DNA of 58,758 bases, counting the filler, from Sphacelaria rigidula (Eukaryota), in assembly GCA_964200075.2 (NCBI GenBank). It is 9 parts of 9 records of this genome, joined end to end, with 100 filler letters (N's around TTAATTAATTAA, not from the genome) between each part and the next. Parts side by side here need not be neighbours in the genome. Positions count along the whole stretch, not along the records: positions 39,242 to 45,680 come from CAXNAA020020052.1; 8 more parts are not named here. One strand, 5' to 3'. Below are positions 6,442 to 54,537 of the stretch, piece by piece. The notes beneath the pieces were generated by a model, which was given only the letters and a program-made list of their open reading frames with translations, had not been told where the DNA came from and did no database searches. Numbering within the stretch: the stretch's first letter is position 1; every line of letters begins with the position of its first letter. The position numbers and the translations under genes are program-made.

Positions 6442-6541
6442 NNNNNNNNNNNNNNNNNNNNNNNNNNNNNNNNNNNNNNNNNNNNTTAATTAATTAANNN
6501 NNNNNNNNNNNNNNNNNNNNNNNNNNNNNNNNNNNNNNNNN
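6442..6541. other. Artificial contig linker (44 N + TTAATTAATTAA + 44 N)
   Basis: Identical 100-bp spacer with stops in all six frames. It recurs at 12982-13081, 19522-19621, 26062-26161, 32602-32701, 39142-39241, 45681-45780 and 52220-52319, separating contigs of 6441-6439 bp. Confidence 0.98.
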
Positions 6542-9924: not shown

Positions 9925-10850
9925 TAACAAGAGCCGATTTAATGATCTGGACGTAGTTTCGAAAACCGAACTGTTTTGTTTCCATAGCTGTTCCGAATTT
10001 GGGTACAAAATAACATGTTACCGTGTGTGACATGTCGGCATACGCTCTGCAGACGGGAGTCAGTAGAATATAGAGTAACACAAGCTCAAGATTGCAGCTG
10101 ACGCATCCTCCTGCACCACGCTAGCAACAGTTAGGTCACCACCATAGGTACCTTTTTTCACTCCACATGTCAAGAAGGTCTTCACAAGTGTTTGACCTCT
10201 CTCTCACACACACCCCAACTGGCCTGTGACAGGCTCTCGGGGTCGGGCGCCTGGATGATCAGATACGTCATGTCGGGTAAAAACAACGATGGATAACACC
10301 CCCCAAGTTCAAATTGGACCATCTGTTATTTTTTCCGCAGCGTACCGTCCTTGCTAGCATGTGTGTGACAGAAAACAGTAGTAGCGGTGACTGGCGAACA
10401 TTGCCCTGTTTTTCAGCGCACAGGAGCACGTCCAGCCCAAAAAGAGAGGCAGAGAGAAATCGATCTTCGCATTAGTGACCTCCAGAGACAAGAAGAGATG
10501 AAATCTCTCCGCAGCTTAATGTTCTTTGGGGATATCTACCGGCACATGAGAAATTCGGTACGTGCTGGTAACATGCATGATGCCAGTCTCTCGAGCGATT
10601 AGTAATCGCCCAGCGAGGGCGCACAAAGGATAGTGGCGAGGAGCTTCCTCTCTGGCGTTGCTTCTCTCTCCGGTGATATCGTCATCGACACCCGTGTACA
10701 CCGCAGTCGTTCGGTGCATTTAGCCACAACTGATGATTCACAGTTGCAGAATTTTGGGGGGAAATGTGGTTTTGACCTGTGTTACTGTTTCGCGTCATCC
10801 CTGCAAAAAAGATATGCCACTTGAACCTCATATTTGAGATCGACCCCATT
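9925..10850 (+). repeat. Interspersed non-coding repeat R1 (~0.9 kb)
   Basis: Homologous to 42325-43482 (reverse complement) and 52320-52760 (same strand), e.g. the shared GAGAGGCAGAGAGAAATCGAT and GTCATCGACAC.CGTGTACACCGCA. Confidence 0.9.
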
Positions 10851-10984
10851 TTTCAGGATCCGCTGTTGAGTGGCTCAAACGTCCCAAAAGTGAACAATCC
10901 ATGGACCAAAAATCTGTGTGCCATGACATCCGGGCTAAGGCTCATATATTTGAGCTCCTACAAAAAGACACCCAGAAACAAAAA

Positions 10985-12916: not shown

Positions 12917-13084
12917 TTAACAGCCGATCCTAATTTTTGGGGTTGAAACAAAATATGAGGTTGAAGTCCCATCCCTTCATANNNNNNNNNNNNNNNNNNN
13001 NNNNNNNNNNNNNNNNNNNNNNNNNTTAATTAATTAANNNNNNNNNNNNNNNNNNNNNNNNNNNNNNNNNNNNNNNNNNNNTTA

Positions 13085-18905: not shown

Positions 18906-19813
18906 AGCCCATTTTGGAACGTCTTCCTCTCGCATTCTCTCATGTCATTCGTGAGGTTACACCTTGGGTGCATGGGACGATAGGAAAGTTGTGTCTGGTT
19001 ATATGTCTGCCCGCTACATTTTTCGACAGTCAGAAAACACTACAACCTACCAACTCTACGACAGCAACAGTAAACAGGAGAGAGAGGAGAGGATAGAGAA
19101 GAGAGGATAGGAAAATCGTGTCCGGTGATACGTCTACTCGCCACTTACCGACAGTTCGTATACACTACAGTCTACTCTACAGTAAACAGGACCGTTGGGG
19201 TTGAAGCAAAGGTTATGGCGTATATAGCACAAGCAAAGGTCATGACATACTACGTAGTGTATTGTGGAGGTCGTGAGACTCCCGGCGACGGCAGGAACCG
19301 TCGAAGGTGGCCAATGATTTTCCTCGTGTTATGTAGTCAAGGATAGACCATAAGTCGTTGTGATGTGAAGGGGAGAAGGCACCTTGTGGGGGTTATTATA
19401 ATGGTGTTCACTCCGAGATTGTTCCAGGTTCAGACCTCTGCGTACGTTGTTTGGTAACTCAGCTCAGCAGCGCAGGAGACAACGAGCAAATAATACAGAC
19501 CAGAATAGCACACTTTTATCCNNNNNNNNNNNNNNNNNNNNNNNNNNNNNNNNNNNNNNNNNNNNTTAATTAATTAANNNNNNNNNNNNNNNNNNNNNNN
19601 NNNNNNNNNNNNNNNNNNNNNGTAGAGACCAAGGCAAGCCGGTAACTGATTGAGATGGGTCAACGCCCTGTGGCGAAGCCGGAACAATCCCAACTAATGA
19701 CAATAGCAAGCGCGATAACAACGCGTCACGGAACTCAGGATCTACGAGCAGACCCGCACAGCGTATATCTTGTAACGCCTGCGAGCTTCATCACATTTGA
19801 TGGGTTGGTGTCG

Positions 19814-24599: not shown

Positions 24600-24634
<35 letters not shown>

Positions 24635-24635
<1 letters not shown>

Positions 24636-24672
24636 ATGGTCTGATGACTATGGCATGCATGATCATGAGTAC
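24635..24672 (+). mobile_element. GAGTAC-end element, severely 5'-truncated (type B), inside a C-tract
   Basis: GATGGTCTGATGACTATGGCATGCATGATCATGAGTAC flanked by poly-C on both sides. Confidence 0.8.
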
Positions 24673-25456: not shown

Positions 25457-26161
25457 GTTTCGATTTTTGCATCTATGTCGGGAAACGCCATGAGTGTTCC
25501 AGCGTTCCTGAGCCTCGAGTCTCGGAACACTTGGCCTACTTTTTCTGCGAGTACGTCACACACGCGACCGTTCTCGTTTATATGAAGGGTCACGTGTGAT
25601 GCGACGCAACGGGTGGTTTATACTTTGGTGATTGATAAGTTACGACGAGATCACCGCTGGCCACGTCGTACGTAACGATGATGAGGAATTGTCCTTACAT
25701 TAGTGGAATGTTTGTTGCAAACGTCTCCTCATACAGGACCATTGCGTATCATGATAGGATAGATCGCTCTGGAACAGACCGTTCCGCCATGTCGATATTC
25801 GACCATTGGTACAGCCTACAGGCTCAGAGTCAGCCACTCGCTATTTTCTTTGTCACTGCTTACACCAGTTGTTTTGAGCACGGTTACCCGCCCATAAATC
25901 GGTCGGTGGTGTTTTGTTTTCATCAGGGATTATTGGACGAAGTAACGTGACGGTGCGACCGGCTGTGGTTTTTACCTCAGTTTGTGTTCGAGCCAGTCTC
26001 GTTTTAGTCCTGTGACGCTAGCAGGTCTGCTAGTACTGCAGCGTCTAAATGCTGTTGAGGGNNNNNNNNNNNNNNNNNNNNNNNNNNNNNNNNNNNNNNN
26101 NNNNNTTAATTAATTAANNNNNNNNNNNNNNNNNNNNNNNNNNNNNNNNNNNNNNNNNNNN

Positions 26162-26214
26162 AAAGGGATGCGTGGTCAATGGTCAAACGACTAAGGCAAG
26201 CAACAAATGAGTAC
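26162..26214 (+). mobile_element. GAGTAC-end element (type A), at contig start
   Basis: Identical to 39257-39309 over the overlap and followed by GCCCCCCC. Confidence 0.85.
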
Positions 26215-27249
26215 GCCCCCCCACACACACACACACCTTACCTGCTCTTCTCTCTTCTCTTTGTTTAGTCAGTTACCCTGTTAATTCGCTCCTTCTCTCG
26301 TAATCATGTTTACCCTCTCCCGGATCTGGTTCAGCGACTGTTTATGTGCTTTTTCGCCTTGGGTATGCTTACCGTATGGCCTCGGCTGACTTCGCAGCTG
26401 GTTACCCCATGTGTGACAATCAATCACTAAATATGCTGTACATGGATGTGTGCGTGCTGTATACCATGCCGTTTCTTTTCGTGGCCTGGTCATGCACCGA
26501 TCTGGTTGTGCCGCTTTCACGCGCATGGCCTGCTCGGGGGAAATATCGCAGCGTACACGTACCGTAGGCAATACGGTATGTTGCCATGAAGATATCTCAA
26601 ACGATGTTTTTGTCCTGTCCCTACTTTTCGACTGGAGCGTTGTTCGAGCGGGTGTTTCCGATTCCGGTTTTTCATTTGCAGTAGGTGCGTCAGGCTTGAG
26701 GTCACAGCTGTAGTTCGGGTTGATGTGAGACGCAATAATACAAGAAATTCCTCCCCCAGTCAAAGCAATTGCTCAATCAACGCTTGTTTCGCCAATGGCA
26801 TGCTCTCACCCTAACGTCACGTCTCCAAAAGATCGAGGACGTGTGCATCATACCTCAAACCGTGGCTTGACTCCATCGGCTTGTCCTCGCGAAGTCGGAC
26901 GATCGGTCGAAGTACAGTACTGTACTCTACACCAGGGTTTCCTCGGTTTCCAACGCATTCGCAGTACCGAGTACACAAGGACATCTAAGGCACCGCCTCC
27001 AGGGTCCCTGAAATACAGAGCCATAAAGCCATCCCACGATAGGGGGAGACGGGTGTATATCGGCCATTTTTTTGTCCCAATAAGGGCATTTTGATACGTT
27101 GCCTGATGTAGTAACTGGATAGAGACGAGTTGAATTAGATGATGCCGACGTCAATGGTCGGCGTCGTACTGTACCACCGTGCCCCGATGGCTCAATGAAC
27201 AATTTGACTCCCTATTAGGGTGGAAAGAAGGTCGGTTCCATTCTCGCCA

Positions 27250-29472: not shown

Positions 29473-29908
29473 TATACGCGGCCATTTGGCTACCCCCCAC
29501 AAGTGCTCCGTCTCGAAAGGGATGCGTGGTCAGTGGTCAAATGACGAAGGCGAGCAACAAATGAGTACGCCCCCCCCCCCACAATGCCCCCGGAGAGATC
29601 CGCGGCCCTCCCGGGACAAAACAAGCCTCCGGAGGCCTTGAATCCCTCTGGAGGAAACCAAACAGTACCAACCTGGAGGGCCGCACACCCCTCCGGAGGA
29701 ATTTGGGGGTAGAGAAATTCGTTCGGAGAGATGCGCGACCCTCCAGGGGCTAAAACAAGCCTCCGGGGGCCTTCAATGCCTCTGGAGGAAACCAAACACT
29801 ACCAACCTGGAGGGCCGCGCACCGCTCCGGCGGCGTTTAATTCCTCTGAATGCTCGAAAAGTTGACCGACCTGAAGGGATTTGGAAAGGAATCAAATGGC
29901 CGCGTGTG
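29473..29908. mobile_element. Non-autonomous TIR element with CACACGCGGCCATTTG-type ends and internal CCTCYRGAGG repeats
   Basis: TATACGCGGCCATTTG / CAAATGGCCGCGTGTG ends and an internal ~133-bp duplication (29592, 29725). It carries a nested GAGTAC-end element. A relative lies at 39478-39865. Confidence 0.75.
29503..29569 (+). mobile_element. GAGTAC-end element (type A), 5'-truncated, TSD CCCCCCACAA
   Basis: CCCCCCACAA at 29493-29502 and 29575-29584. An empty-site paralog TGGCTACCCCCCACAAT is at 39481-39497. Confidence 0.9.
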
Positions 29909-32900
29909 TGTATTGAAAATTGTTAGGGGCCCTCTCTTTCATCCATACTGTCACCTGTGCTCACGTATCTCGGCTGTCGATGGACTGAGCCTGGCGGCAC
30001 AGCCGCCGAAACCCTTGTTCTGTATTTGTGTGTTGTAGTTCAAACTCTATTGTTGTCTCTATTGGTTTAATAGGCGTTGCTGCGTTGTGCTCAAGGAAAG
30101 CTGGTGATGACTCGTGTATAGATTGAATGCGAGTGTGTACATTTATAATTCGAATGCTATGCACCCTCACCTTCTTTACCTTGCCCACAGACGTTTCTGT
30201 GGAAGCAAACGACCAGGCTGCGGGACGGCACCACGGTGGTTCTCAAGACTATCCCTTGCGAAGCAGGAGAGGCCGACGATGTCTGCCTGGTGGAGGTGAT
30301 GGGAGTGCCAAAGAGAACTTGATTTTCTCACAATGTGGAGGAGTGCACACCGATCATCTAAACGGATTACACCTAGTAGAAGCGCGTGGTAGAGAGTATA
30401 TTTTTTAGTGTTGACACGGTGTGTTTGTTACATACGAAAATTCATTTTCACGTTGGTGTCGTCCGGAGGGGTGGGGGGAAAGGGGGTCGCGGTTCACCGA
30501 AGACACGATCCGTGTCTGGTGAGGAGGAAGAGTTATGGTATAATAGTAGTTTCTTTTTTTTTGCTCTGTACTTTCCTTTTATTTTCCTTTTTTTCTTATT
30601 CTAGGTCGGCCATTTTTTTCTGTGCTTTGCTTGTGTTGACTTTTTCATTACCCTTTTTCTTTGTCACGACTTAGTCTGCTATGTCGTTCTGTTCGACCCC
30701 CCCTTTTTTTCTGCTCCTTCTTTTTCTCAGAGCGTGTTTCAGTTTCGTTTTTGTTGGGTACATCTACCATGAGACCACGGCTGGACCCCTGGGGGGTCAA
30801 TTAAAGTGCGACTATCAATCAATCAATCAAGTAGTGATATAAAACTCCACCGTTTCGTGCTACAGCGGGACGAGATACCACACACACGAAACGCGCCATA
30901 TCGAGCCACTTGAAAGCAAATTCTACAGAACGACTCCGACCTCGATAAAAATGACGCCTCGACTTCTTGGGCGCCAAGTTCCGCGAGATCGTACCACCCC
31001 AGGCAGAGTACTGAAGAATACAGGGGAACAACTGCCGTTTTTTTACAACACGCATACGGGTCAGCAGCAGCTAGGCACCACGGAGTATGTTCGACAGTGC
31101 TCCAACCTGTTGCGTGCCTAAGTGAAGCCTGGGAAACGACACATATGTGTCAAGAGGTGGTTGCGATAACTTAACCCAGTTGGCGTCGCGGTGATGGTAG
31201 TAATTACCGGCAAAACGCCTTCTCTTGTTGTTTCATTTTGTGTGATGGTCGCCCGTTTTGTCGTGTGATTGAAACCTGAGCATTTACACCAAATATATAT
31301 GTGTATATTTCTTTTTCTTCAAGCGGTTTGTTTTTTGTTATGTTTCTACTCCCGAGCGCGCCATGTACATGTTTCTATGTAGAATATCCTATAATGTACA
31401 TCCAACGACAGATGTCACTCGACCTGACCGGCAGAGGAGACTGACCCTCCTCAAGACACGGCGCACCTCGAGACAGAAGATCATTGTTGGTACCCTGTTC
31501 GCCTAGCCATTTTGTGCTAAAGACTTTGAGCAGTCATGTCGTAGTCACGGGGTCAGTATGTGGCTCATCTAAAACAATCTGAAGCCAGCAAGCCTCACGC
31601 ATCGTGGATGATGGCTCTGTCCCGCGTATACCCATACTGTGGTTAATGACATTCTCGCGTTGCGTGGCCCTAGTACGCGTGCGCAACATCTGAGCAGTGG
31701 GCGCCGCGTCAGATATTTTGCTTGCTGTTTTTGGTTAGACGTAAGATCCAGGAAGGCGTTCACCTCAGTTTTGGGGTATTTTCAACACCGTTGTACTCGT
31801 GTTCCAGGGTCATGAGCCCTTACAACAGCGTGATTGATGTCTCAATAGAGCCCTATGAAGAGACCGCTGCGACCACTGCGGGTCTGGCCGAAAACATTGT
31901 TGAAAAAGAACATGTCCCGCCAATATTCGACTTTGCTATCGCGTGCTTGCGTTGTGAACAGAGGCCTGAAATATTTTAGAGTTCTGTGTGCTCGTGTCTC
32001 CTTCCCGAATGTTACGTGCGTGATATATCGGTGCATCGTCTACAAAAACCGCCAACAGATGTCTCGTGATCCTCCCGACAAGGACGGTCTCCCTCAAGAG
32101 ATTGTATCCACTGCCTCAAGCTTCATTGACAACTCGGGTGTCAACCGCAGGCTCCGGGGAATGGATGACTCTATCGCGCCTGCGGCGGTTGACCGCAGGC
32201 TGCAGGAGGATGAAAAGGTAGATCGTGACATGGCGTCCAAAACGGAACTTTTGCATTCTTGTTTCACAAGAAAAAAGTGGATGGTTTCTGTCGGAGGGGG
32301 CGAGCGTGGGGGATAGCTGTTGGAGTTGTGACAATTGAAATCGATCACAGCTTGATTGTGAGTTGTTGTGCCTCAAGGTTTTCAGTGGGTGACACCCATG
32401 GTAAAAGAGAAGTCCACCCGACAAATCCATTTGTTTTATTTTGCTGTTTCTCGGCAGTATACCCTTCCCTGTGTTTTGACCCGAATGCTTCGCATTGCTA
32501 TCGTTTTATGTTTGTTCTTATCCTCCCCCCCCCCCCTCCCCACCCCTCTCCCCCCCCCCTCTCCCCTCCCCCCACCTACCTTGCTACTCTCCCCCCCCGC
32601 CNNNNNNNNNNNNNNNNNNNNNNNNNNNNNNNNNNNNNNNNNNNNTTAATTAATTAANNNNNNNNNNNNNNNNNNNNNNNNNNNNNNNNNNNNNNNNNNN
32701 NCGCAACCGCCACCCACACCCTACACCCTCTTTTCTTCCCGCCGCGCGGGGTCGGGGGGGGGTTGGGGGTGGGGGCGGGGGGGGGGGGGGGGGGGGGGGG
32801 GGAATCACGCACACGCCGACTGAACTTTATCCTAGTGCTGAGTCAGCACCCCCAGCCAACGTTTTGCCTTGATTTGTGGACAGGCAATCCGTCGCCGCGC

Positions 32901-33472: not shown

Positions 33473-35225
33473 CTACAGACGTACGTACGCGAGGAAGTTC
33501 GCGAGACGGAAGACGGCAAGCTTTTCCATAATTGTTTTGTGATCTCCCTCTCCAATAAGCCTCTTCCTTGGAATTCTGGGTATCTTTCACGAGTAATTTG
33601 GCTGCTCGTTCTACGAAATGTCACGGTTCCAAAAACAAAATGGGGTTTTTCCAAAGAATTCATATACAAACACTTTTTGTCGTGGGACAGTTTTCCCGAC
33701 ATAACATTGTGTTGGAAATTGACTTCTCTCCGACGATGGAAAGTTCCCCAAGGGATCGATCAGAACACGACATCATATCTCACATTGTTTCAAAACCGTT
33801 TTGGGGATTATCAGTAATCTCATCGTGAATGATCCAGTACACGCACGCCGCCTGAGAATTCAATACCGCCGCTCGCGTGTTAGTGTTAACGTGGAAATCC
33901 CGTCATAACGAAAATGGCTTTGGAAACAGGTCCCTCGAAGGGAACTGCGCGGGAAAATATGCCCAAGATTTCTCGAACTATTGATTTCTCAAACGCAAAA
34001 AAGCGACCGTAGGGTAGAGTACTATACCCAGGTACCCTGCTGGTGCTTCAGGGTATTTGCAGCAGCCAGTACCGCCGGGTACCCGGGATATCCACTGCCG
34101 AAAGATACGGCGTATTTCAGGGTACCTTACTTTAACCATGGACACCTCAATACTCCTGCATTCGTCCCCCAACCTACCTCAAATCATCTCAGGTAACGCT
34201 GCATAGAGCTAATTGTAAAATTTTGGAAGCGCTTCAATCAAGGGTGATGATGCCAACCAGCTCCTGCCTAGAGCAGCTCCTGGTGCCTTACTACGAAACC
34301 CACTGCTGAAGATACGTGTCGCACCACAATATTACACACGATGTGTGCCTTTCCTTTCATCGGACATGTTTGCCATCTACATTCTACATATGTATACGTG
34401 TGTGCGTACAACTTACGAGGCGACTACGCCGAATGAGCCCGAGCCCCTCAAGACTTGAGAAAGGTACTCGAGGAGCAGTGTGTTTCAAAAATAAGTTTCT
34501 TGCAACTCGTGTAGCCTACGCTCAATAACGTGGTGTGCTCGTGAGATCACGGGAGAAGGGCAACAGCACCTAAAGGTAGCATATATGTGCGAGGGTAGAT
34601 ACAACAGCACCTAGGGGTGCACATGAGGGTATATGCGGTGGAAAAGCATCGTAGATCATGTCACGGTGACTATCTTGGCCGCTTCCGACTGCAAGTGGTC
34701 ATGATCTTCACCTGTACCTTTCTCTAGGCCATGCACATCATAGTGGATCATTCTCAACTCTTCTTGCCCCCAGGCGGTACCGTTCACAACATCTCGTGTC
34801 TACATTCCCAGCACAGCCTGCTTGTTCGGTTCACTTCACTGCTGGCAGCGTCAGCCTTTGCGACCACCCATGATAGTGTCTGGGGACATTTTGTCAACAT
34901 TGTGCACACGTGCAGGGTGCGAAGGTTGAGGAGAAAGTCGCTGTTCAGGCTTCCAAAACTAGGGGTTGGACCATTCCAACCAGAGATCCCGGCAACAATC
35001 TCACGGCCGTTTCCCCTGCATTGTCCGTTTCGCTCACAAATGTCACGTCAACGACGCTCGGGGCTCCGCGAGAAGTAATGGAGCATTTCTCGAGGCCCCA
35101 TCATCATTTAAGATATTCTTTGCTTTTTTTCCCGCCATACCTTCAACCCCTGTCATACCTTCAACCCCTGTCCTTCCTCGGGACGAGTATATCCGTAGTA
35201 GCCAGAAGGGATCAACCCATCTCTC

Positions 35226-36009
35226 CGACAAAGGCAAGCAACAAATGAGTACGCACACCCCCCTCCCTCAACCCCCTGATACTGTGCCATACTAGGATAT
35301 AGATCATGACCATTGACGGCGAATCACGAAGGGGATAAGAAAAGTACGAGAATTTTTGTATGGAAGACGCGTGATGAGCGCCCAAATGTTGGAGGTGTCT
35401 CTATTAGGAGTAGGAACGGTGCTCCGTCTCAAGAAGGATACGTCGTCAACGGTCAGACAACAAAGGCAAGCAGCACATGAGTACCCCCCCCTCCCCTGGT
35501 ACTGTACCTCCCCTGTGGATTGGGGTCGGTTGGCAACAACGCTGTAAAATACGCCACTCACCGTGTAAGCCAGGCAACCAGGTTGCCGGGGTTTTTTGCG
35601 CTTGCGATAACCATGATGGCGGTCGAGCTAGATCATATTGTGCGGGGTTGGAGAACCTCAATTCCGCTCAAAAAGGATGATCATACTGCGTAGTCTTTAA
35701 ATGGTGAGACACCCATGAGGCAGTGTGAAAGCCGTGACTATCTCTGTAAGTGATGATACGACGGAATGAAGCAACACATTGAAGGCTGCCATCCATATGC
35801 AAGATAAGATAATCAGTACGCGTCGGGCGGAACAGGACAATCGTGGCAGGATGCAGCTCACCCGTCATGCGACTCGCCGAACACATCACAGCACATCGCG
35901 CTTGGTGATTGCGAGCCTGTTCCAGCGAAAATCCGGCGTGCTCCGTCCCGGTTTGTAAGGGATGCGAGGTCAATGGTCAGGTGACTACGGCATGCAATAT
36001 CATGAGTAC
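35226..36009 (+). mobile_element. Stack of three GAGTAC-end elements (A truncated, A ~190 bp, B ~490 bp) in an ankyrin-gene intron
   Basis: GAGTAC ends at 35247-35252, 35479-35484 and 36004-36009, each followed by a C-rich run and TGRTACTGTRC. Confidence 0.85.
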
Positions 36010-36274
36010 GCCCCCGCACCTTCGATGGTACTGTACATGGCTGATATTTCGGTATCATAGATTGACTGAATCAGACCTCCCTACACCGAGTCGACTCTCG
36101 GCGAGGGTATTTTGCAAGTCATATCCTCACGTCTTGAGCAGGTGATTGTAATTATCGGGGGAAAACGACTGTCCTAAACCTTCCGCCCAAGTCGGCGAGA
36201 GATGTAATTATTTAATTTAGACTACCGGGTGGCAGAGGCGTTATGTAAAAGTGAAAAGAGCATGGGTACTGCAC

Positions 36275-38829: not shown

Positions 38830-39141
38830 GTACTCATGATATTGCATGCCATAGTCATAAGACTGTTGACCTCGCATCCCTACAAACCCGGGACGGAGCA
38901 CAGCGGGTTTTCGTCGGACCAGGCTCGCAATCGATCGCCAAGCGCGAAGCGCCGTGACGTATTCGGCGAGCCGCATGAAGGGTGTGCTTCATTCTGCTAA
39001 GATTGTTCGGCCCGAAGCGTACTGATTATCTTGCATTCGGATGACAGCCACCAATGCGTTGCTTTATTTTCTGGCATCGCCACTTCCAGAGACAGCTAGC
39101 ACGGAACGGGGGGGGGTGTACTCATGATCATGCATGCCATC
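38830..39141 (-). mobile_element. Two tandem GAGTAC-end elements (type B), second cut by contig end
   Basis: GTACTC at 38830 and 39118, each preceded by GCACGG..G-run. Body matches the reverse complement of 35735-36009 and 45395-45663. Confidence 0.85.
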
Positions 39142-39241
39142 NNNNNNNNNNNNNNNNNNNNNNNNNNNNNNNNNNNNNNNNNNNNTTAATTAATTAANNN
39201 NNNNNNNNNNNNNNNNNNNNNNNNNNNNNNNNNNNNNNNNN

Positions 39242-39309
39242 CGGTGCTCCGTCTCGAAAGGGATGCGTGGTCAATGGTCAAACGACTAAGGCAAGCAACA
39301 AATGAGTAC
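39242..39309 (+). mobile_element. GAGTAC-end element (type A), at contig start
   Basis: CGGTGCTCCGTCTCGAAAGGGATGCGTGGTCAATGGTCAAACGACTAAGGCAAGCAACAAATGAGTAC followed by GCCCCC. Confidence 0.88.
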
Positions 39310-39477
39310 GCCCCCTGTGCTTGCCGTGCATTTTGGTCTCCGGGGTTGGCTTATGGCTATCAACACTCTTGCATCGTGTGGACACTCGTCAAACGAATTC
39401 AGACAACCACTTTTGTTCACTCACGTACTCACGTTTTCGACGTTAAAAATCAGATACAACTCGAACAATTATCCATG

Positions 39478-41593: not shown

Positions 41594-42324
41594 GATTGAA
41601 TCGTCCGAACGGTCGGTCGATCGGTCGGTCGATGTTGTTTCTGGTGGTGGTGGTTGGTGGTGGTCGCAATCGTGCTGTGTCCCCGAGCACCAGGAGGCAG
41701 AAGCGAGAAAGAAGATAAGACTTCATTAAACAAGATACATATTTTTTGTGCGTGCATAAGTAACTTCAATCTGAGTGATATATTTTTTCGTCACTCCCGT
41801 GATATGTCATGCACATACACGCACATATGTATATATATATATATGCACCATGGGTACGTACGTCTATCTAGTGTATAATGACTACTGTACTGCTGGGTCC
41901 CTCGCGGATCAGTCAATGCGCGACAATCAAACAAATGTATACTATGTCGTATATATTAGGAGCACCTGATTCTTTGGCAGGAAAAAGGCACCTCGTTTAA
42001 CGAAATTGATTATATGCTTCAAGGGCGCGTGCGTCTGGTCGTCGTAGTACGTTGGATGACACGATTTGGAACACATACGATCATCGAATTCGGCTGAATA
42101 ACGACCAATGGGAGCTGTCAATGGATGAAAGTCGGTCGAGTTGTTGGCAGGTGTGACAGCTGATCGAATCGTCAAAGACCGTCGTATCTGCCATGCTCTT
42201 TCATGGTTTGGATGATGCCGAGTGTATGTCCATGTAGTCTGCGTTGTCGACAACGTGTCCCCTTGGACGCTGTTGTGCTTCCCTGTCAGACAGCAAAACT
42301 GTATGAAAGTGGATCGTGGGAAAC

Positions 42325-43482
42325 AGGATCGATCTCAAAAGTGAGGTTCAAGTGACATATCTTTTTTTCACGGATGACGCGAAACAGTAACACAGCGCGA
42401 AGCTATATTCCCCCCCAAAACTCTGCAACTGTGAATGAGTTGTGGCTAGGCGCACCGAACGAATGCGGTGTACACGTGTGTCGATGACGATACCACCAGA
42501 GAGAGAAGCAACGACAGAGAGGAAGCTCCTCACCCATGTCCTTTGTGTGTCCTCGCTCGGCGACTACCAATCGCTCGAGAGACTGGCATCATGCATGTTA
42601 CCAGCATCTACCGAATTTCTCATAATATGCCGTTATTATATTGCTGCGCACAACCCCCCAAAGAACATCGAGCTGCGGAAAGATTTCGTCTCTTCTTGTC
42701 TCTGGAGCTCACCAATGCAAAAATCGATTTCTCTCTGCCTCTCTTTTTGGACAGGACGCGCCTCTGTGCGCTGAAAAATATGTCGTTGAAAAACAGGGCA
42801 ATGTTCCCGTCACCGCTACTGTTCCCTGCCACACACATGCCAGCAAGGACGGCGCGCTGCGGCAAAATTAACAGATCCAATTTGAACTTGGGGGGTGTTA
42901 TTCATCGTTGATTTTACCCGACATGACATATGTGACCATCCAGGTGCCCGACCACAAGAGCCTGCCAGAGGCCAGTTGGGGGGGGGGGGGCTGAGAGATC
43001 AAACACTTGTGGAGACTTTCTTGACATGCCGAATGAAAAAAGTGCACCGGAGACCGTCCGACAAAGCGGCTGCGACCCCACTATTGAGCTCGTTTGCAGA
43101 AATTCCGCACACATGAGAGGCGTGTAGCAGTCCAAAACCAGCTATAACGCCCAAATGATTCGCGTCGTGCAGCATAATACCAGCTCTCACGGCATTTATG
43201 ATCATCACCTCCGTGCACCTTTTTTGGCCGGTTCGGGGGGGGGGGCTATCTCGGCAGCAGTCGATGGTGACCTAACTGTTGCTAGCGTGGTGCAGAGGGG
43301 TGCGTCAATGATGCAATCTAGAGCTTTCGTTGCTCTACTCTACTGACTCCCGTCTACAGAGAATCTGCAGAGAGGTCACACACGGTAACAACATGTTACG
43401 TACCGAATTTTGGAACAGCTATATAGAAACAAAACAATTCGATTTTCTAAACTACGTCCACATCATTGAAATGACTCTTGTC
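42325..43482 (-). repeat. Interspersed repeat R1 with nested MITE A
   Basis: Reverse complement of 9925-10850, interrupted at ~43035-43262. Confidence 0.9.
43035..43262 (-). mobile_element. MITE family A, one TIR lost
   Basis: Ends GGGGGCTATCTCGGCAGCAGTC and the body matches 21392-21640. Absent from the R1 copy at ~10140. Confidence 0.88.
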
Positions 43483-45021: not shown

Positions 45022-45663
45022 CTCCGCCTCGAAAGGGATGCGTGGCCAATGGTTGAACGACTAAGGCATGTACCGAATGAGTACCCCCCCTCCCCCCCCC
45101 CCTGGTCCGGCAAGAACCCGGCGCGCTCCGTCCTGGCTTTGTAGGGGCGGATCCCCGATGGTGTTGGCGTCGCGTGGCGATGACGCTGTGGAACACGCCA
45201 CTCACTGCGTAAGCTAGGCAACCAGGTCACCGATGTTTTTTTGCGCCTGCGTTGTTTTTGCAGTATCCACGGTGGTGGTCGAGCTAGATCATGTTGTGCG
45301 GCGTGGGAGAACCTCATTTCCGCATAGTGAGGATGATCGTACTACGTACTGTAGTGTGTAAATGGTGAGACACCCATGAGGCATTGTGTTAGCCGTGGCT
45401 GTCTCTGGAAATGGCGATACCAGAAAATGAGGCTTCTATTTGTAGACTGACATCTAAATGCAAGATAATCCGTAGGCTTTGGGCCGGACAATCTCAGCAG
45501 GATGCAGCTCACCCTTCATGCGACTCGCCGAACACACCACGGCGCTTCGCTTTTGGTGATTGATTGCGAGCCTGGTCCGGCGGAAACTCGGCGTGCTCCG
45601 TCCCGGCTTAGTAGGGATGCGAGGTCAATGGTCATATGAATATGGCATGCGTAATGATGAGTA
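45022..45663 (+). mobile_element. Stack of GAGTAC-end elements (A truncated, then B ~560 bp) in a C-tract
   Basis: GAGTAC at 45079-45084 followed by a C-run. The B body matches 35525-36009 and ends GAGTA at 45659-45663. Confidence 0.85.
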
Positions 45664-46502
45664 AAACGCGATGGCCCGGGNNNNNNNNNNNNNNNNNNNN
45701 NNNNNNNNNNNNNNNNNNNNNNNNTTAATTAATTAANNNNNNNNNNNNNNNNNNNNNNNNNNNNNNNNNNNNNNNNNNNNTTGTAGATCCGTCTTGATGT
45801 ACACGTACAACACGTGCCTCCCGAAATGTCAGTGGGCATCGAACGAGGCAAACGCGCTAGTGCCACCCCCGGTAGTGCAATCGTACTTGAGCTATTTCCA
45901 CTGCAAACGGAACTGCGTGACGTAGTGGGCGCCCACCCAGACGACTTACACAACCGAGATCAAGGAGTACTCTACGCCAAAAGAGAGAGTCTCGGACGCG
46001 TCGCGGGGAACGCCAACGACTGCGTCGACGGCATGTGCATGTAGTACTGCGCGTGTACATGTCGTGGTCTGTTCGCATTATGATGCTTCGTCACTAATGG
46101 GGGTGGTGGGTGAATTTAAGAATGTGTTCGGTTTTAGATTGGCGGGTCTGCTCAAAAGTAGTATGGAACTGGTTCAATGGTACAGGCAGGTATACGCCGG
46201 CCGGAAATGAACTATATTTCTGGTACATTCATTCACGCAAAGCGTATATCCACCTATATAGCTGGATCCTTATTTCCACTGAGACCTTTTATCATGACCG
46301 ATCCCGCGTTGTTTTTTTCTAATTCGGGAGCCCACATTTTTTTAATCAGCTGCCCATTACGGATGTTTTCAAACAAAGTGGGTTCGGGTTACGAGCAAAA
46401 CCAGAGCCAAGTTTTTGAATTTGAGAGCGCCACCTCTACAAACCCGCTCAGCGGGCAGGTGAACAGCACGCACATAGTTCACATGAACACAGCTACACGC
46501 AT

Positions 46503-50662: not shown

Positions 50663-52319
50663 GAAAACATCCGTGACGGGTAGCTGATTAAAAAAATGTG
50701 GGTCCCCATAGGTGGATAAACTTTTTGCGCATTTATTCAAGTCTGGGAGTGGTCGGTGTTGAGGTGATTTTGTTCCTCCAGAAAGCTCGCTCCACATCAG
50801 TAGATGGACAATCTTGTTGCACTAGCGAGTGTCCTCCCTTTGTCTGTACCAGTCGGGAAGCACACGCTCCGAGCGGCCACCCCACGTTTACCGTCATTGC
50901 GAAAATAATAAGACAAGAGCACGAACAGCAACTGTTGTGGCCGCTACACACCAACGTAACTACAGTGACTTACGAGTGATAGCCATCGTGCTGGACAGCG
51001 CTGACACACACACGAATCGGCACCGGCTGATTTAGACCTACCCCCAGCCGCGTACATCTACTGGCAGTAAAGATGCTGCTGATACTGCTGCTGTTGCTTC
51101 TCCTCCTGCTCGTGCGGAACGCGATTAGAACGGCGCGTAATTTCTCGTGATGCTGCAGAACATCTGTGTTGTTTTCTGTTGAGTGTGGTCCTCCGCCGCA
51201 TCTCTCAACGTGCAGATCTGGGTTGCAAGTTTTTGCAGTCGAATACACCGTCACGAGCGACCAGAAAACACGGCATAATTGCCTTGTCTGGTGTTGAGAG
51301 TAGTACTCTGCAGTTCATACACCACTGCAGAGTTGTCTGGTTCTGAGTGTACCACCCTGTAGTCAAGATAATAGGGTCATCTTTTGAGCAGGTTCTGCTG
51401 GTTTTTTTAGAGGTTCTGCTGGGGTTTTTCCAAGTATTCCGAAAAAAACTAGAGTGTTTTCTGTCACAGAAATCTACAGCAGAATCTGGAATAGCCTGAG
51501 ACAACAACCAATTTAAAAATTGGAATTGGAACGAGCCAGCACCTCCCTGCGGCTTGACTGATTTCCCTCCTCCGTCATGATTTCGTGTTGACACAATGCA
51601 AAAACCGGCGGAGATTTCGTTGCGTCTCCACCAACATCATTGTATGGTCAAAAGACGAGAAAAAAAGTAGCTACGATCGATACCCAAGAAAAGGAACGGC
51701 GAAAACAAAAAAAAGATTGAGTGTGGCATGGTGAAAATGCAATAGTTGTTTACGCACAAACATCTGATTTCCTGTCTTCGACCAAGGAATCACAGCACCT
51801 AGGAAACCAACCGCTCCCCGAGACGTTTTGTCTACGGCTGCAACTCCCGGTATGGCAGTGGGACTGGCTGGCACGAGGGTACTAAGGGTAAAGGACTGGA
51901 GGCACCTACAAAGAGCGAGCGTTGGGGCTCAAGAAGTGAAACCTAACATTACCCTTTGTGATTATTCTTCATACCTCCTTGCCTTAACGACAGATGCAAG
52001 AAAAATAGTTCATAGATACTGTGTACATGTACATGTATAATTTCACATGTTTCACCACTTTTGCCGAGTCTTCTCTGGCGGCAAGAAATCGTTTCCCGCG
52101 CTTTCTTTTGCAGCGCACCAAGAAGGCTTAGGGGTACATTACCGTTCAGGTTTGGGTGTCATATGATACCTGCGGCGCGTGTTCTGGCAACCGAAGGTCG
52201 CTCAAACCGGCCCTTTTTCNNNNNNNNNNNNNNNNNNNNNNNNNNNNNNNNNNNNNNNNNNNNTTAATTAATTAANNNNNNNNNNNNNNNNNNNNNNNNN
52301 NNNNNNNNNNNNNNNNNNN

Positions 52320-54440: not shown

Positions 54441-54537
54441 GTGCTCACGATCTTGCACTCCGTAGTCAAGAGATCGTTGACCTCGCATTCCTACAAAGCC
54501 GGGACGGAGCACTTCGGGTTTTCGCCGGACCAGCTCG
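54441..54537 (-). mobile_element. GAGTAC-end element (type B), 5'-truncated, GAGCAC variant
   Basis: Reverse complement of the B 3' module, adjoining a G-run at 54437-54441. Confidence 0.8.

Follow-up and report, generated by a model that had tools for sequence, protein, structure and literature searches.

The DNA analysed here, a stretch of 58,758 nt from Sphacelaria rigidula (the window), contains 12 copies or fragments of a module of ~66 nt, which were detected by BLAST, a pattern search and a covariance model, and whose 3' end is ATGAGTAC followed by a C-run. The module very probably represents the 3'-terminal RNA of a brown-alga-type LINE of the RTE-X clade and of short non-autonomous elements that use the LINE machinery, and by analogy with other LINEs it would serve for recognition by the reverse transcriptase (RT). 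In the sense RNA, a closing helix (P1) would enclose two arms, a hairpin with a variable loop (P2) and a longer, interrupted hairpin (P3). The 5' strand of P3 is nearly invariant (GCGUGGUCAAUGG). Copies forming the tail of the LINE are designated type A, and those forming the tail of the non-autonomous partner type B.

The type A copy at 39244-39309 (+), which scored 81.9 bits (E 3.9e-19) with the covariance model, reads GTGCTC-CGTCTC-GAAA-GGGATG-CG-TGGTCAATGGTC-AAAC-GACTA-AGGCAAGCAACAAAT-GAGTAC, then GCCCCC. P1 is made up of GTGCTC (39244-39249) and GAGTAC (39304-39309), and P2 (hairpin 1) of CGTCTC (39250-39255) and GGGATG (39260-39265) with the loop GAAA. The lower part of P3 pairs GTC (39270-39272) with GGC (39290-39292), and its apical part (hairpin 2) pairs TGGTC (39275-39279) with GACTA (39284-39288) around the loop AAAC. 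An ORF stop codon, TGA, occupies 39303-39305, and the tail, a G and a C-run, starts at 39310. The outer stem and both hairpins that an initial annotation of this DNA had described for the copy were all found, and its four non-Watson-Crick pairs are, as claimed there, all G-U on the sense strand.

The window consists of nine chunks of ~6440 nt joined by eight TTAATTAATTAA linkers, which are flanked by 16 runs of 44 N (N44-TTAATTAATTAA-N44) and give spacers at 6442-6541, 12982-13081, 19522-19621, 26062-26161, 32602-32701, 39142-39241, 45681-45780, and 52220-52319. Copy 39244 begins 2 bases past a spacer, at the start of chunk 7, and its readable context is downstream only. The chunks starting at 26162 and 39242 open within or at the start of a module, as assembly breaks in repeats would. 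GC content is ~50% throughout the window, which looks largely non-coding and repeat-rich; a search of 16 long stop-free frames for Pfam families found none.

Further type A copies, all on the plus strand, lie at 26162-26216 (BLAST and covariance model), where the start is lost at a chunk boundary and a C-run and (CA)n follow; at 29503-29568 (73.8 bits), with a 5' truncation precisely at the first base of P1; and at 45022-45084 (A3; covariance model), truncated at the 5' end within P1 and placed in C-rich surroundings. A 5'-truncated LINE copy at 35286-35484 (+) retains the last ~65 codons of the ORF and a decayed module (35419-35484), and a partial, rearranged type A tail is present at 35226-35254 (+). 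Type B is represented by B1 (35509-36012, +; ~505 nt, module 35938-36009), B2 (45146-45665, +; module 45593-45664), the 5'-truncated B3 (38830-39098, -; module 38830-38901), and the B4 module (54441-54512, -; covariance model). A 5'-truncated type B tail lies between C-runs at 24630-24672 (+; pattern search and covariance model), and another type B tail, at 39118-39141 (-; pattern search), is lost at a chunk end and stands head-to-tail with B3. A 21-nt degenerate tail pattern gave 4 matches as compared with 0.03 expected, a number reached in 0 of 100 shuffles. The covariance model of the fold recovered 9 window copies at E <= 2.7e-6, one weak match to a truncated copy and one match (E 0.2) that is probably noise. 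A C-run follows each complete tail but one, the exception being the decayed copy at 45593, which ends in GAGTAA.

Type A is interpreted, from the sequences of its relatives, as the very 3' end of a LINE from the RTE-X clade. An exact 21-mer from the module matches two contigs, one of them in a prokaryote-labelled MAG (L001/L004) and the other from a marine metagenome (L002). L004 carries a full-length relative with one ORF of 1382 aa for an N-terminal AP-type endonuclease and a reverse transcriptase (PF03372 Exo_endo_phos, E 8.1e-11; PF14529; PF00078 RVT_1, E 6.7e-32). The protein terminates in ...GCVVNGQMTKASNK (frame end ...RNGAPSRKGCVVNGQMTKASNK), its stop codon TGA is the TGA within ATGAGTAC, and the C-run begins four bases on. 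The type A module corresponds to the last 22 LINE codons, the stop codon and GTAC, so that in autonomous copies it also codes for the last ~20 residues (...GCVVNG...) and the stop lies inside P1. The same position of the stop codon within P1 was found in every autonomous lineage examined.

The window has 3' fragments of this ORF only. Three tblastn matches, at 29505, 35286, and 39243, all fall within residues 1317-1382, and since just the last 19-65 ORF residues are present, the type A window copies are strongly 5'-truncated. The segment 35286-35474 aligns to residues 1317-1381 of the protein P0001, and what had been described as the type A body (35296-35416) is the end of the LINE ORF. A homologue search gave 178 matches at E <= 1e-3. 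The closest named proteins are those of Ectocarpus sp. CCAP 1310/34, with P0004 showing 59% identity over 99% of the query region. The element was provisionally assigned to RTE-X on the anatomy that it has in common with published elements and on its nearest named homologues. Upstream of the LINE in L004, in the opposite orientation (L004:4764-4830, +), there is a degenerate variant of the module, GGTGCTCCGTCTC...GGTCAATGGCAAGGCA...CATGAGTTC, which is devoid of apical P3 and escapes the covariance model R1.

Type B is a non-coding, non-autonomous element of ~520 bp whose sole part in common with the LINE is the tail. B1 and B2 can be aligned with each other over about 505-520 nt, and no long ORF was found in the type B bodies. 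The two match the LINE contig only at the tail, over 75 nt (80%) and 38 nt (87%), respectively, and share nothing significant with it beyond; the bodies located 5' of the module in the two types are unrelated, as had been noted. Hairpin 1 of the type B copies has the form CGTCCC-(GGTTTGTAA or GGCTTAGTA)-GGGATG, and the outer stem is longer at 35935-36012 (GGCGTGCTC/GAGTACGCC). In the copy at 54441-54512 (-), the variant GAGCAC in the 3' strand of P1 converts a G-U pair to G-C. The loops AAAC, AGGT, and TGAT of hairpin 2 each occur among the copies. All these details agree with the initial annotation, and so does its expectation that stems would be steadier than loops: the stems persist in both types, whereas loop 1 lengthens from 4 to 9 nt and loop 2 is variable.

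The copies show a common pattern of insertion. Copy 29503 lies between direct repeats CCCCCCACAA (29493-29502 and 29575-29584), which are read as a target-site duplication (TSD), the mark left by target-primed insertion into a C-tract. Copies are often truncated at the 5' end, and truncated ones lie within C-tracts. New copies are located directly behind the C-tails of older ones, as in a series of three at 35185-36012 and in the succession of A3 and B2 at 45022-45665. A 12-mer TG[GA]TACTGT[AG]C[CA] recurs at 35277-35288, 35497-35508, and 36026-36037, in each case 10-20 nt after one of three successive tails; this has the appearance of a single target site that was duplicated as insertions recurred at one place, a process that would build a tandem array. 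A fragment of a type B tail (TGGTCCGGCAAGAACCCGGCGCGCTCCGTCCTGGCTTTGTAGGGG), truncated at its 3' end, lies at 45100-45145, after the A3 tail and ahead of the full-length B2, and suggests nested or aborted insertions. A 5'-truncated type B tail is immediately preceded by a run of ~33 C (about 24600-24632), and at about 26217-26240 a C-tail passes into (CA)n.

A protein-alignment search of genome contigs for related LINEs gave 31 loci, mostly in G002, a 16-Mb bin labelled Nitrospirales, and otherwise in G003 and G004. The proteins of the LINE lineages that carry the module are only 32-58% identical; in the best segment, the identity is 48% between lineages X and A and 35% between Y and A. The distant loci have a GC content of 34-45% and a CpG observed/expected ratio of 0.39-0.47, as compared with 0.96 in the window. 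They belong to another kind of eukaryotic genome, binned into prokaryotic MAGs. When up to 150 candidates per genome were scored with model R1, at least 139 matches were obtained in G002, 16 in G004, and 1 each in G003 and G001; the covariance model in this way exposed eukaryotic DNA mis-binned in bacterial MAGs. Such public prokaryote MAGs contain eukaryotic contigs, some of megabase size, that are full of RTE-X LINEs; among the bins with matches besides G001, G004 (8 Mb) is labelled 'bacterium' and G003 (2.9 Mb) Nitrososphaerales. In G004:C64, tubulin is encoded in three pieces, consistent with introns, and a search for HSP90 in G002 and G004 found none.

The 3' ends of the distant LINEs retain nucleotides of the module, with the stems altered pairwise. 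The window has TGGTC/GACTA as apical P3, X has TGGCG/CGCTA, and both Y and Z have TGGCA/TGCTA. For P2, the window sequence (CG)TCTC/GGGA(TG) corresponds to CCTGC/GTGGG in X, to CCTA/TGGG in Z and to CCCAG/CTGGG in Z3/Z4; Y has a short P2, and the two outermost P1 pairs are absent in X, Y, and Z. The tails in the distant lineages are ATT/TATT-like repeats, not (C)n. One locus, L264 (G002:C17:1051553-1052789), is a tandem array of at least 7 module-bearing units of about 140-165 nt. In another, L143, the ORF is broken, and comparison with a protein atlas gave generic RT clusters only.

Pairing was assessed in alignment A4, made with MAFFT from 17 sequences of five lineages, and with a structure of 18 pairs derived from the very sequences scored. 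In A4, 89.8% of the cells are paired, as compared with 33-47% when the partners are slid by 1-3 columns, and 6 of the 18 pairs show change on both sides. The covariation score of 0.290 (0.147 for shuffled alignments) was reached by none of 500 shuffles, a control that overstates significance because copies of one lineage share descent and decay neutrally. The 52-row alignment A5, which was fitted to model R1, gave 87.2% pairing as against 32-49% for slid partners. RNAalifold, run with no structure input, returned the same helices, including a hairpin 1 of 6 bp, with 16 pairs, 4 of them compensatory.

The compensatory series are as follows: in P3, the apical pair is C-G, G-C or A-U and the next pair U-A or C-G; in P2, one pair is U-A or C-G and another C-G, G-U or A-U; and in P1, the outer pair is G-C or A-U. 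Most pairs are invariant and hence uninformative, all covariation being confined to 6-7 pairs, and the independent lineages number only about five to eight. The case for the fold accordingly rests on double changes of paired bases, at least five or six of them independent, in a set of five to eight lineages, and at this level the sequence comparison supports the predicted structure. An additional helix, TGC/GCA, at the base of P3 was considered and rejected; it competes with the two outer P2 pairs and is without covariation, and its third pair is C-C in the majority of Z sequences.

Between types A and B themselves, the stem differences are one-sided (U-G to C-G; G-U to G-C or A-U) and accompanied by loop indels. 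The covariation looked for between the two types therefore did not appear as any full compensatory change, but it is present between distant lineages, and the evidence for the fold from the window taken by itself is no more than suggestive. RNAfold gave modest z-scores for the sense strand of 8 copies (-2.40 to +0.28), with the same architecture in A and B. In 7 of these 8 copies the predicted stability of the sense strand exceeded that of the antisense strand; for copy 39244, the minimum free energies were -17.3 and -6.0 kcal/mol, respectively. On the sense strand, G-U or U-G stands at five helix positions, and these would be A-C mismatches on the complement, which points to a single-stranded sense RNA. 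The strand-specific structured RNA proposed by the initial annotation is hence supported by compensatory substitutions across distant LINE lineages and by wobble pairs that are possible on the sense strand only.

In a comparison of the assembled copies with majority reads of a DNA run from the likely host, each of the seven differences listed for the B1 module concerned a loop or a bulge, and three of the six listed for the decayed copy 35419 restore broken pairs. Contigs from two RNA libraries cover 35370-35449 and 35849-35907 and, as contigs, carry no strand, RNA-end or transcription information.

As the module forms the end of an ORF, it might be kept purely for the C-terminal peptide (...SAxxxGCVVNGxxAMAA), with the RNA fold being incidental. 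The last ~20 codons of autonomous copies do coincide with the module. The C-termini of homologues that are ~38-43% identical to P0001 read ...SAxxxGCVVNGxxAMAAx, the residues just before being unalignable, and the C-terminal motif [CR][VAEM][VA][NDY]G occurs in 21 of the 120 homologues listed, all of them within the best 32. However, the codons TGC GTG GTC AAT, which encode the C-V-V-N part of this peptide, are identical in lineages A, X, and Y including their synonymous sites, and GCTCC is kept in two reading frames, as GAP in A and as SS(A/I) in X, Y, and Z. The paired apical positions co-vary though they alter the peptide (QMTK, VSAT, and RDAM). Type B, like the tandem and short derivatives, retains the nucleotides of the module outside any ORF, and in type B this is so despite a frame-shifting 5-nt insertion in the loop. 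These comparisons support a constraint on the module that acts at the nucleotide rather than the peptide level, and make a purely coding explanation very improbable. It is also quite improbable that the similarity of the two types and the fold reflect common ancestry only, type B being a recent chimera with a LINE tail and the module having descended without selection. Such an origin would account for A-B differences that are mostly one-sided or loop indels, with no full compensatory change, and for neutral decay of genomic copies, but not for a module kept between LINEs with 32-58% protein identity when the low-complexity coding DNA immediately preceding it cannot be aligned. Nor does it fit the compensatory changes between distant lineages, which moreover reside in genomes as different in composition as the CpG ratios given above indicate.

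The position of the module exactly at the 3' boundary of the element, and a compact multi-helix fold with invariant unpaired nucleotides, would suit a small self-cleaving ribozyme or another 3'-processing signal that sets the RNA terminus, and other LINEs are known to have ribozymes. A search with 4227 Rfam models, the described self-cleaving classes among them, gave no match at the gathering score for the whole window and none at E <= 10 for 35200-36100, a region with one A and one B copy; the Rfam match that would have counted against the initial interpretation thus did not appear. The C-tail is downstream of the module and is retained in copies, and hence an RNA cut at the module would lose its priming tail. 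A processing role is thus highly unlikely. Of the two functions initially put forward, 3' processing or self-cleavage found nothing in its support, whereas RT recognition is favoured by a module that adjoins the tail of a LINE with endonuclease and RT and that is common to its non-autonomous partner. A role at the DNA level, as a target-site mimic, a site for priming of the second strand or an internal promoter, would be in keeping with repeated insertions into the tails of earlier copies, which form tandem arrays. Yet the C-tract target itself explains tandem insertions, and the five wobble positions would be mismatched on the complementary strand, so that this possibility appears extremely remote.

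With the module regarded as a 3'-terminal recognition RNA, the following course of retrotransposition may be proposed. The endonuclease-RT protein of the LINE would bind the module, and its endonuclease would nick a C/G tract. The G-rich 3' end of the nicked strand would then anneal to the (C)n tail of the RNA, and reverse transcription would begin just downstream of GAGUAC. Type B RNAs, bearing the same module, would be mobilised in trans. Recognition, annealing, the start of reverse transcription and mobilisation in trans are the most likely steps by analogy with stringent-type LINEs, as far as these are treated in the accessible portions of the literature (PMC3747384, PMC4176376, PMC11194090). 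Given the stop codon in P1, a terminating ribosome would release the protein on its own binding site, and, speculatively, this may favour action in cis.

A broader proposal, which is tentative and rather doubtful at present, is that the module represents a hitherto undescribed RNA family which is deeply conserved within one RTE-X subclade, occurs in eukaryotic genomes with and without CpG depletion, and overlaps the last ~20 codons and the stop codon of the LINE ORF, and that termination inside the RT-binding fold loads the protein onto its own RNA. If true, the fold would constitute a built-in cis-preference device that has been copied by non-autonomous elements.

The window elements have the anatomy of families known from another brown alga. 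In the accessible text of the Ectocarpus survey (PMC12477816), RTEX-1_Ec32 and RTEX-2_Ec32 are described by 'single EN-RT ORF; (C)n 3'' and have C-rich TSDs. RTEX-N1 is there an element of 607 bp with unknown 5' head, which 'can be present in tandem' and has a '60 bp 3' end 83% RTEX-1/RTEX-2', and RTEX-N2, of 188 bp, has a similar tail (PMC12477816). RTEX-N1 exceeds 6000 copies in Ectocarpus, the RTE-X elements and their partner being among its most abundant repeats (PMC12477816). When compared by description, the window elements share with RTEX-1/2 and RTEX-N1 a single EN-RT ORF, the (C)n end, a C-rich TSD, a partner with a common tail and occurrence in tandem; the L264 array, too, parallels RTEX-N1, which was noted as tandem-capable. 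Tail sharing as such is therefore already published for a related alga. With the nearest Ectocarpus protein just 59% identical, the window elements probably come from another brown alga or another family. The accessible text of the survey notes sequence conservation of the tail and is silent on an RNA fold, on any overlap with the end of the ORF and on conservation beyond brown algae (PMC12477816).

Stem-loops in the 3' tails of stringent-type LINEs and SINEs have been described for eel UnaL2/UnaSINE1 and zebrafish ZfL2 (PMC4176376; PMC3747384, from the accessible parts of both). As in UnaL2 and ZfL2, a stem-loop at the extreme 3' end precedes a short repeat tail, is common to a LINE and its partner, and shows compensatory changes. 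In contrast to these L2-clade elements, the module belongs to RTE-X, is unrelated in sequence, has two arms closed by P1, and is followed by a homopolymer C tail; it also overlaps the ORF end, whereas the stem-loops of UnaL2 and ZfL2 lie in the 3' UTR. In a monocot L1 lineage, a 3' hairpin with variable stems, compensatory mutations and conserved nucleotides in the loop and flank was taken as a sign of stringent recognition, according to the accessible part of the source (PMC3747384). That hairpin resembles the module in being a LINE 3'-end fold with compensatory mutations and differs in belonging to the L1 clade, in consisting of a single hairpin, in having another tail and in the lack of an overlap with the ORF. 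The R2 protein binds the RNA of the R2 3' UTR for target-primed reverse transcription, as stated in the accessible text (PMC11194090), and the module would have in common with it a structured 3' RNA for RT recognition in that process. R2 differs in being site-specific, in its restriction-like endonuclease, and in a far larger 3' UTR structure, and the Rfam models revealed no similarity between R2 and the module.

The RTEX family of Ectocarpus with its shared tail is already known, and 3' stem-loops of LINEs and SINEs are a long-established concept. Rfam 15 and the accessible parts of the open full-text literature yielded no description of this fold, of the way it overlaps the end of the ORF and the stop codon, or of its retention by further RTE-X lineages. 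The general picture of how LINEs and SINEs work is unchanged by these data; the idea of stringent 3' recognition is extended to the RTE-X clade. The module is a clear case of double constraint, with coding and RNA structure acting on one sequence and the stop codon placed in the closing helix. A covariance model of the shared tail can find LINE-dependent non-autonomous elements with unrelated bodies and can explain tandem arrays.

In the contig collections, a loose DNA pattern gave at least 120 genome-contig loci and 16 viral-contig loci, which were dismissed as chance, as BLAST detected the module in none of them. A stricter pattern gave 50 genome-contig loci and 1 viral locus; about half of the genome loci were judged to hold the module, most of them in G002, and the remainder, together with the viral locus, were set aside as chance matches in prokaryotic-looking sequence. 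Five near-identical matches to the strict pattern, three of them from Luminiphilus MAGs, presumably reflect a conserved enzyme motif. Within the window, other repeats of 150-750 nt, which are unrelated to the module, are common to chunks 2, 7, and 9 at 70-89% identity (for example, 10152-10864 and 42308-43042), and chunks 3 and 8 also have such repeats in common.
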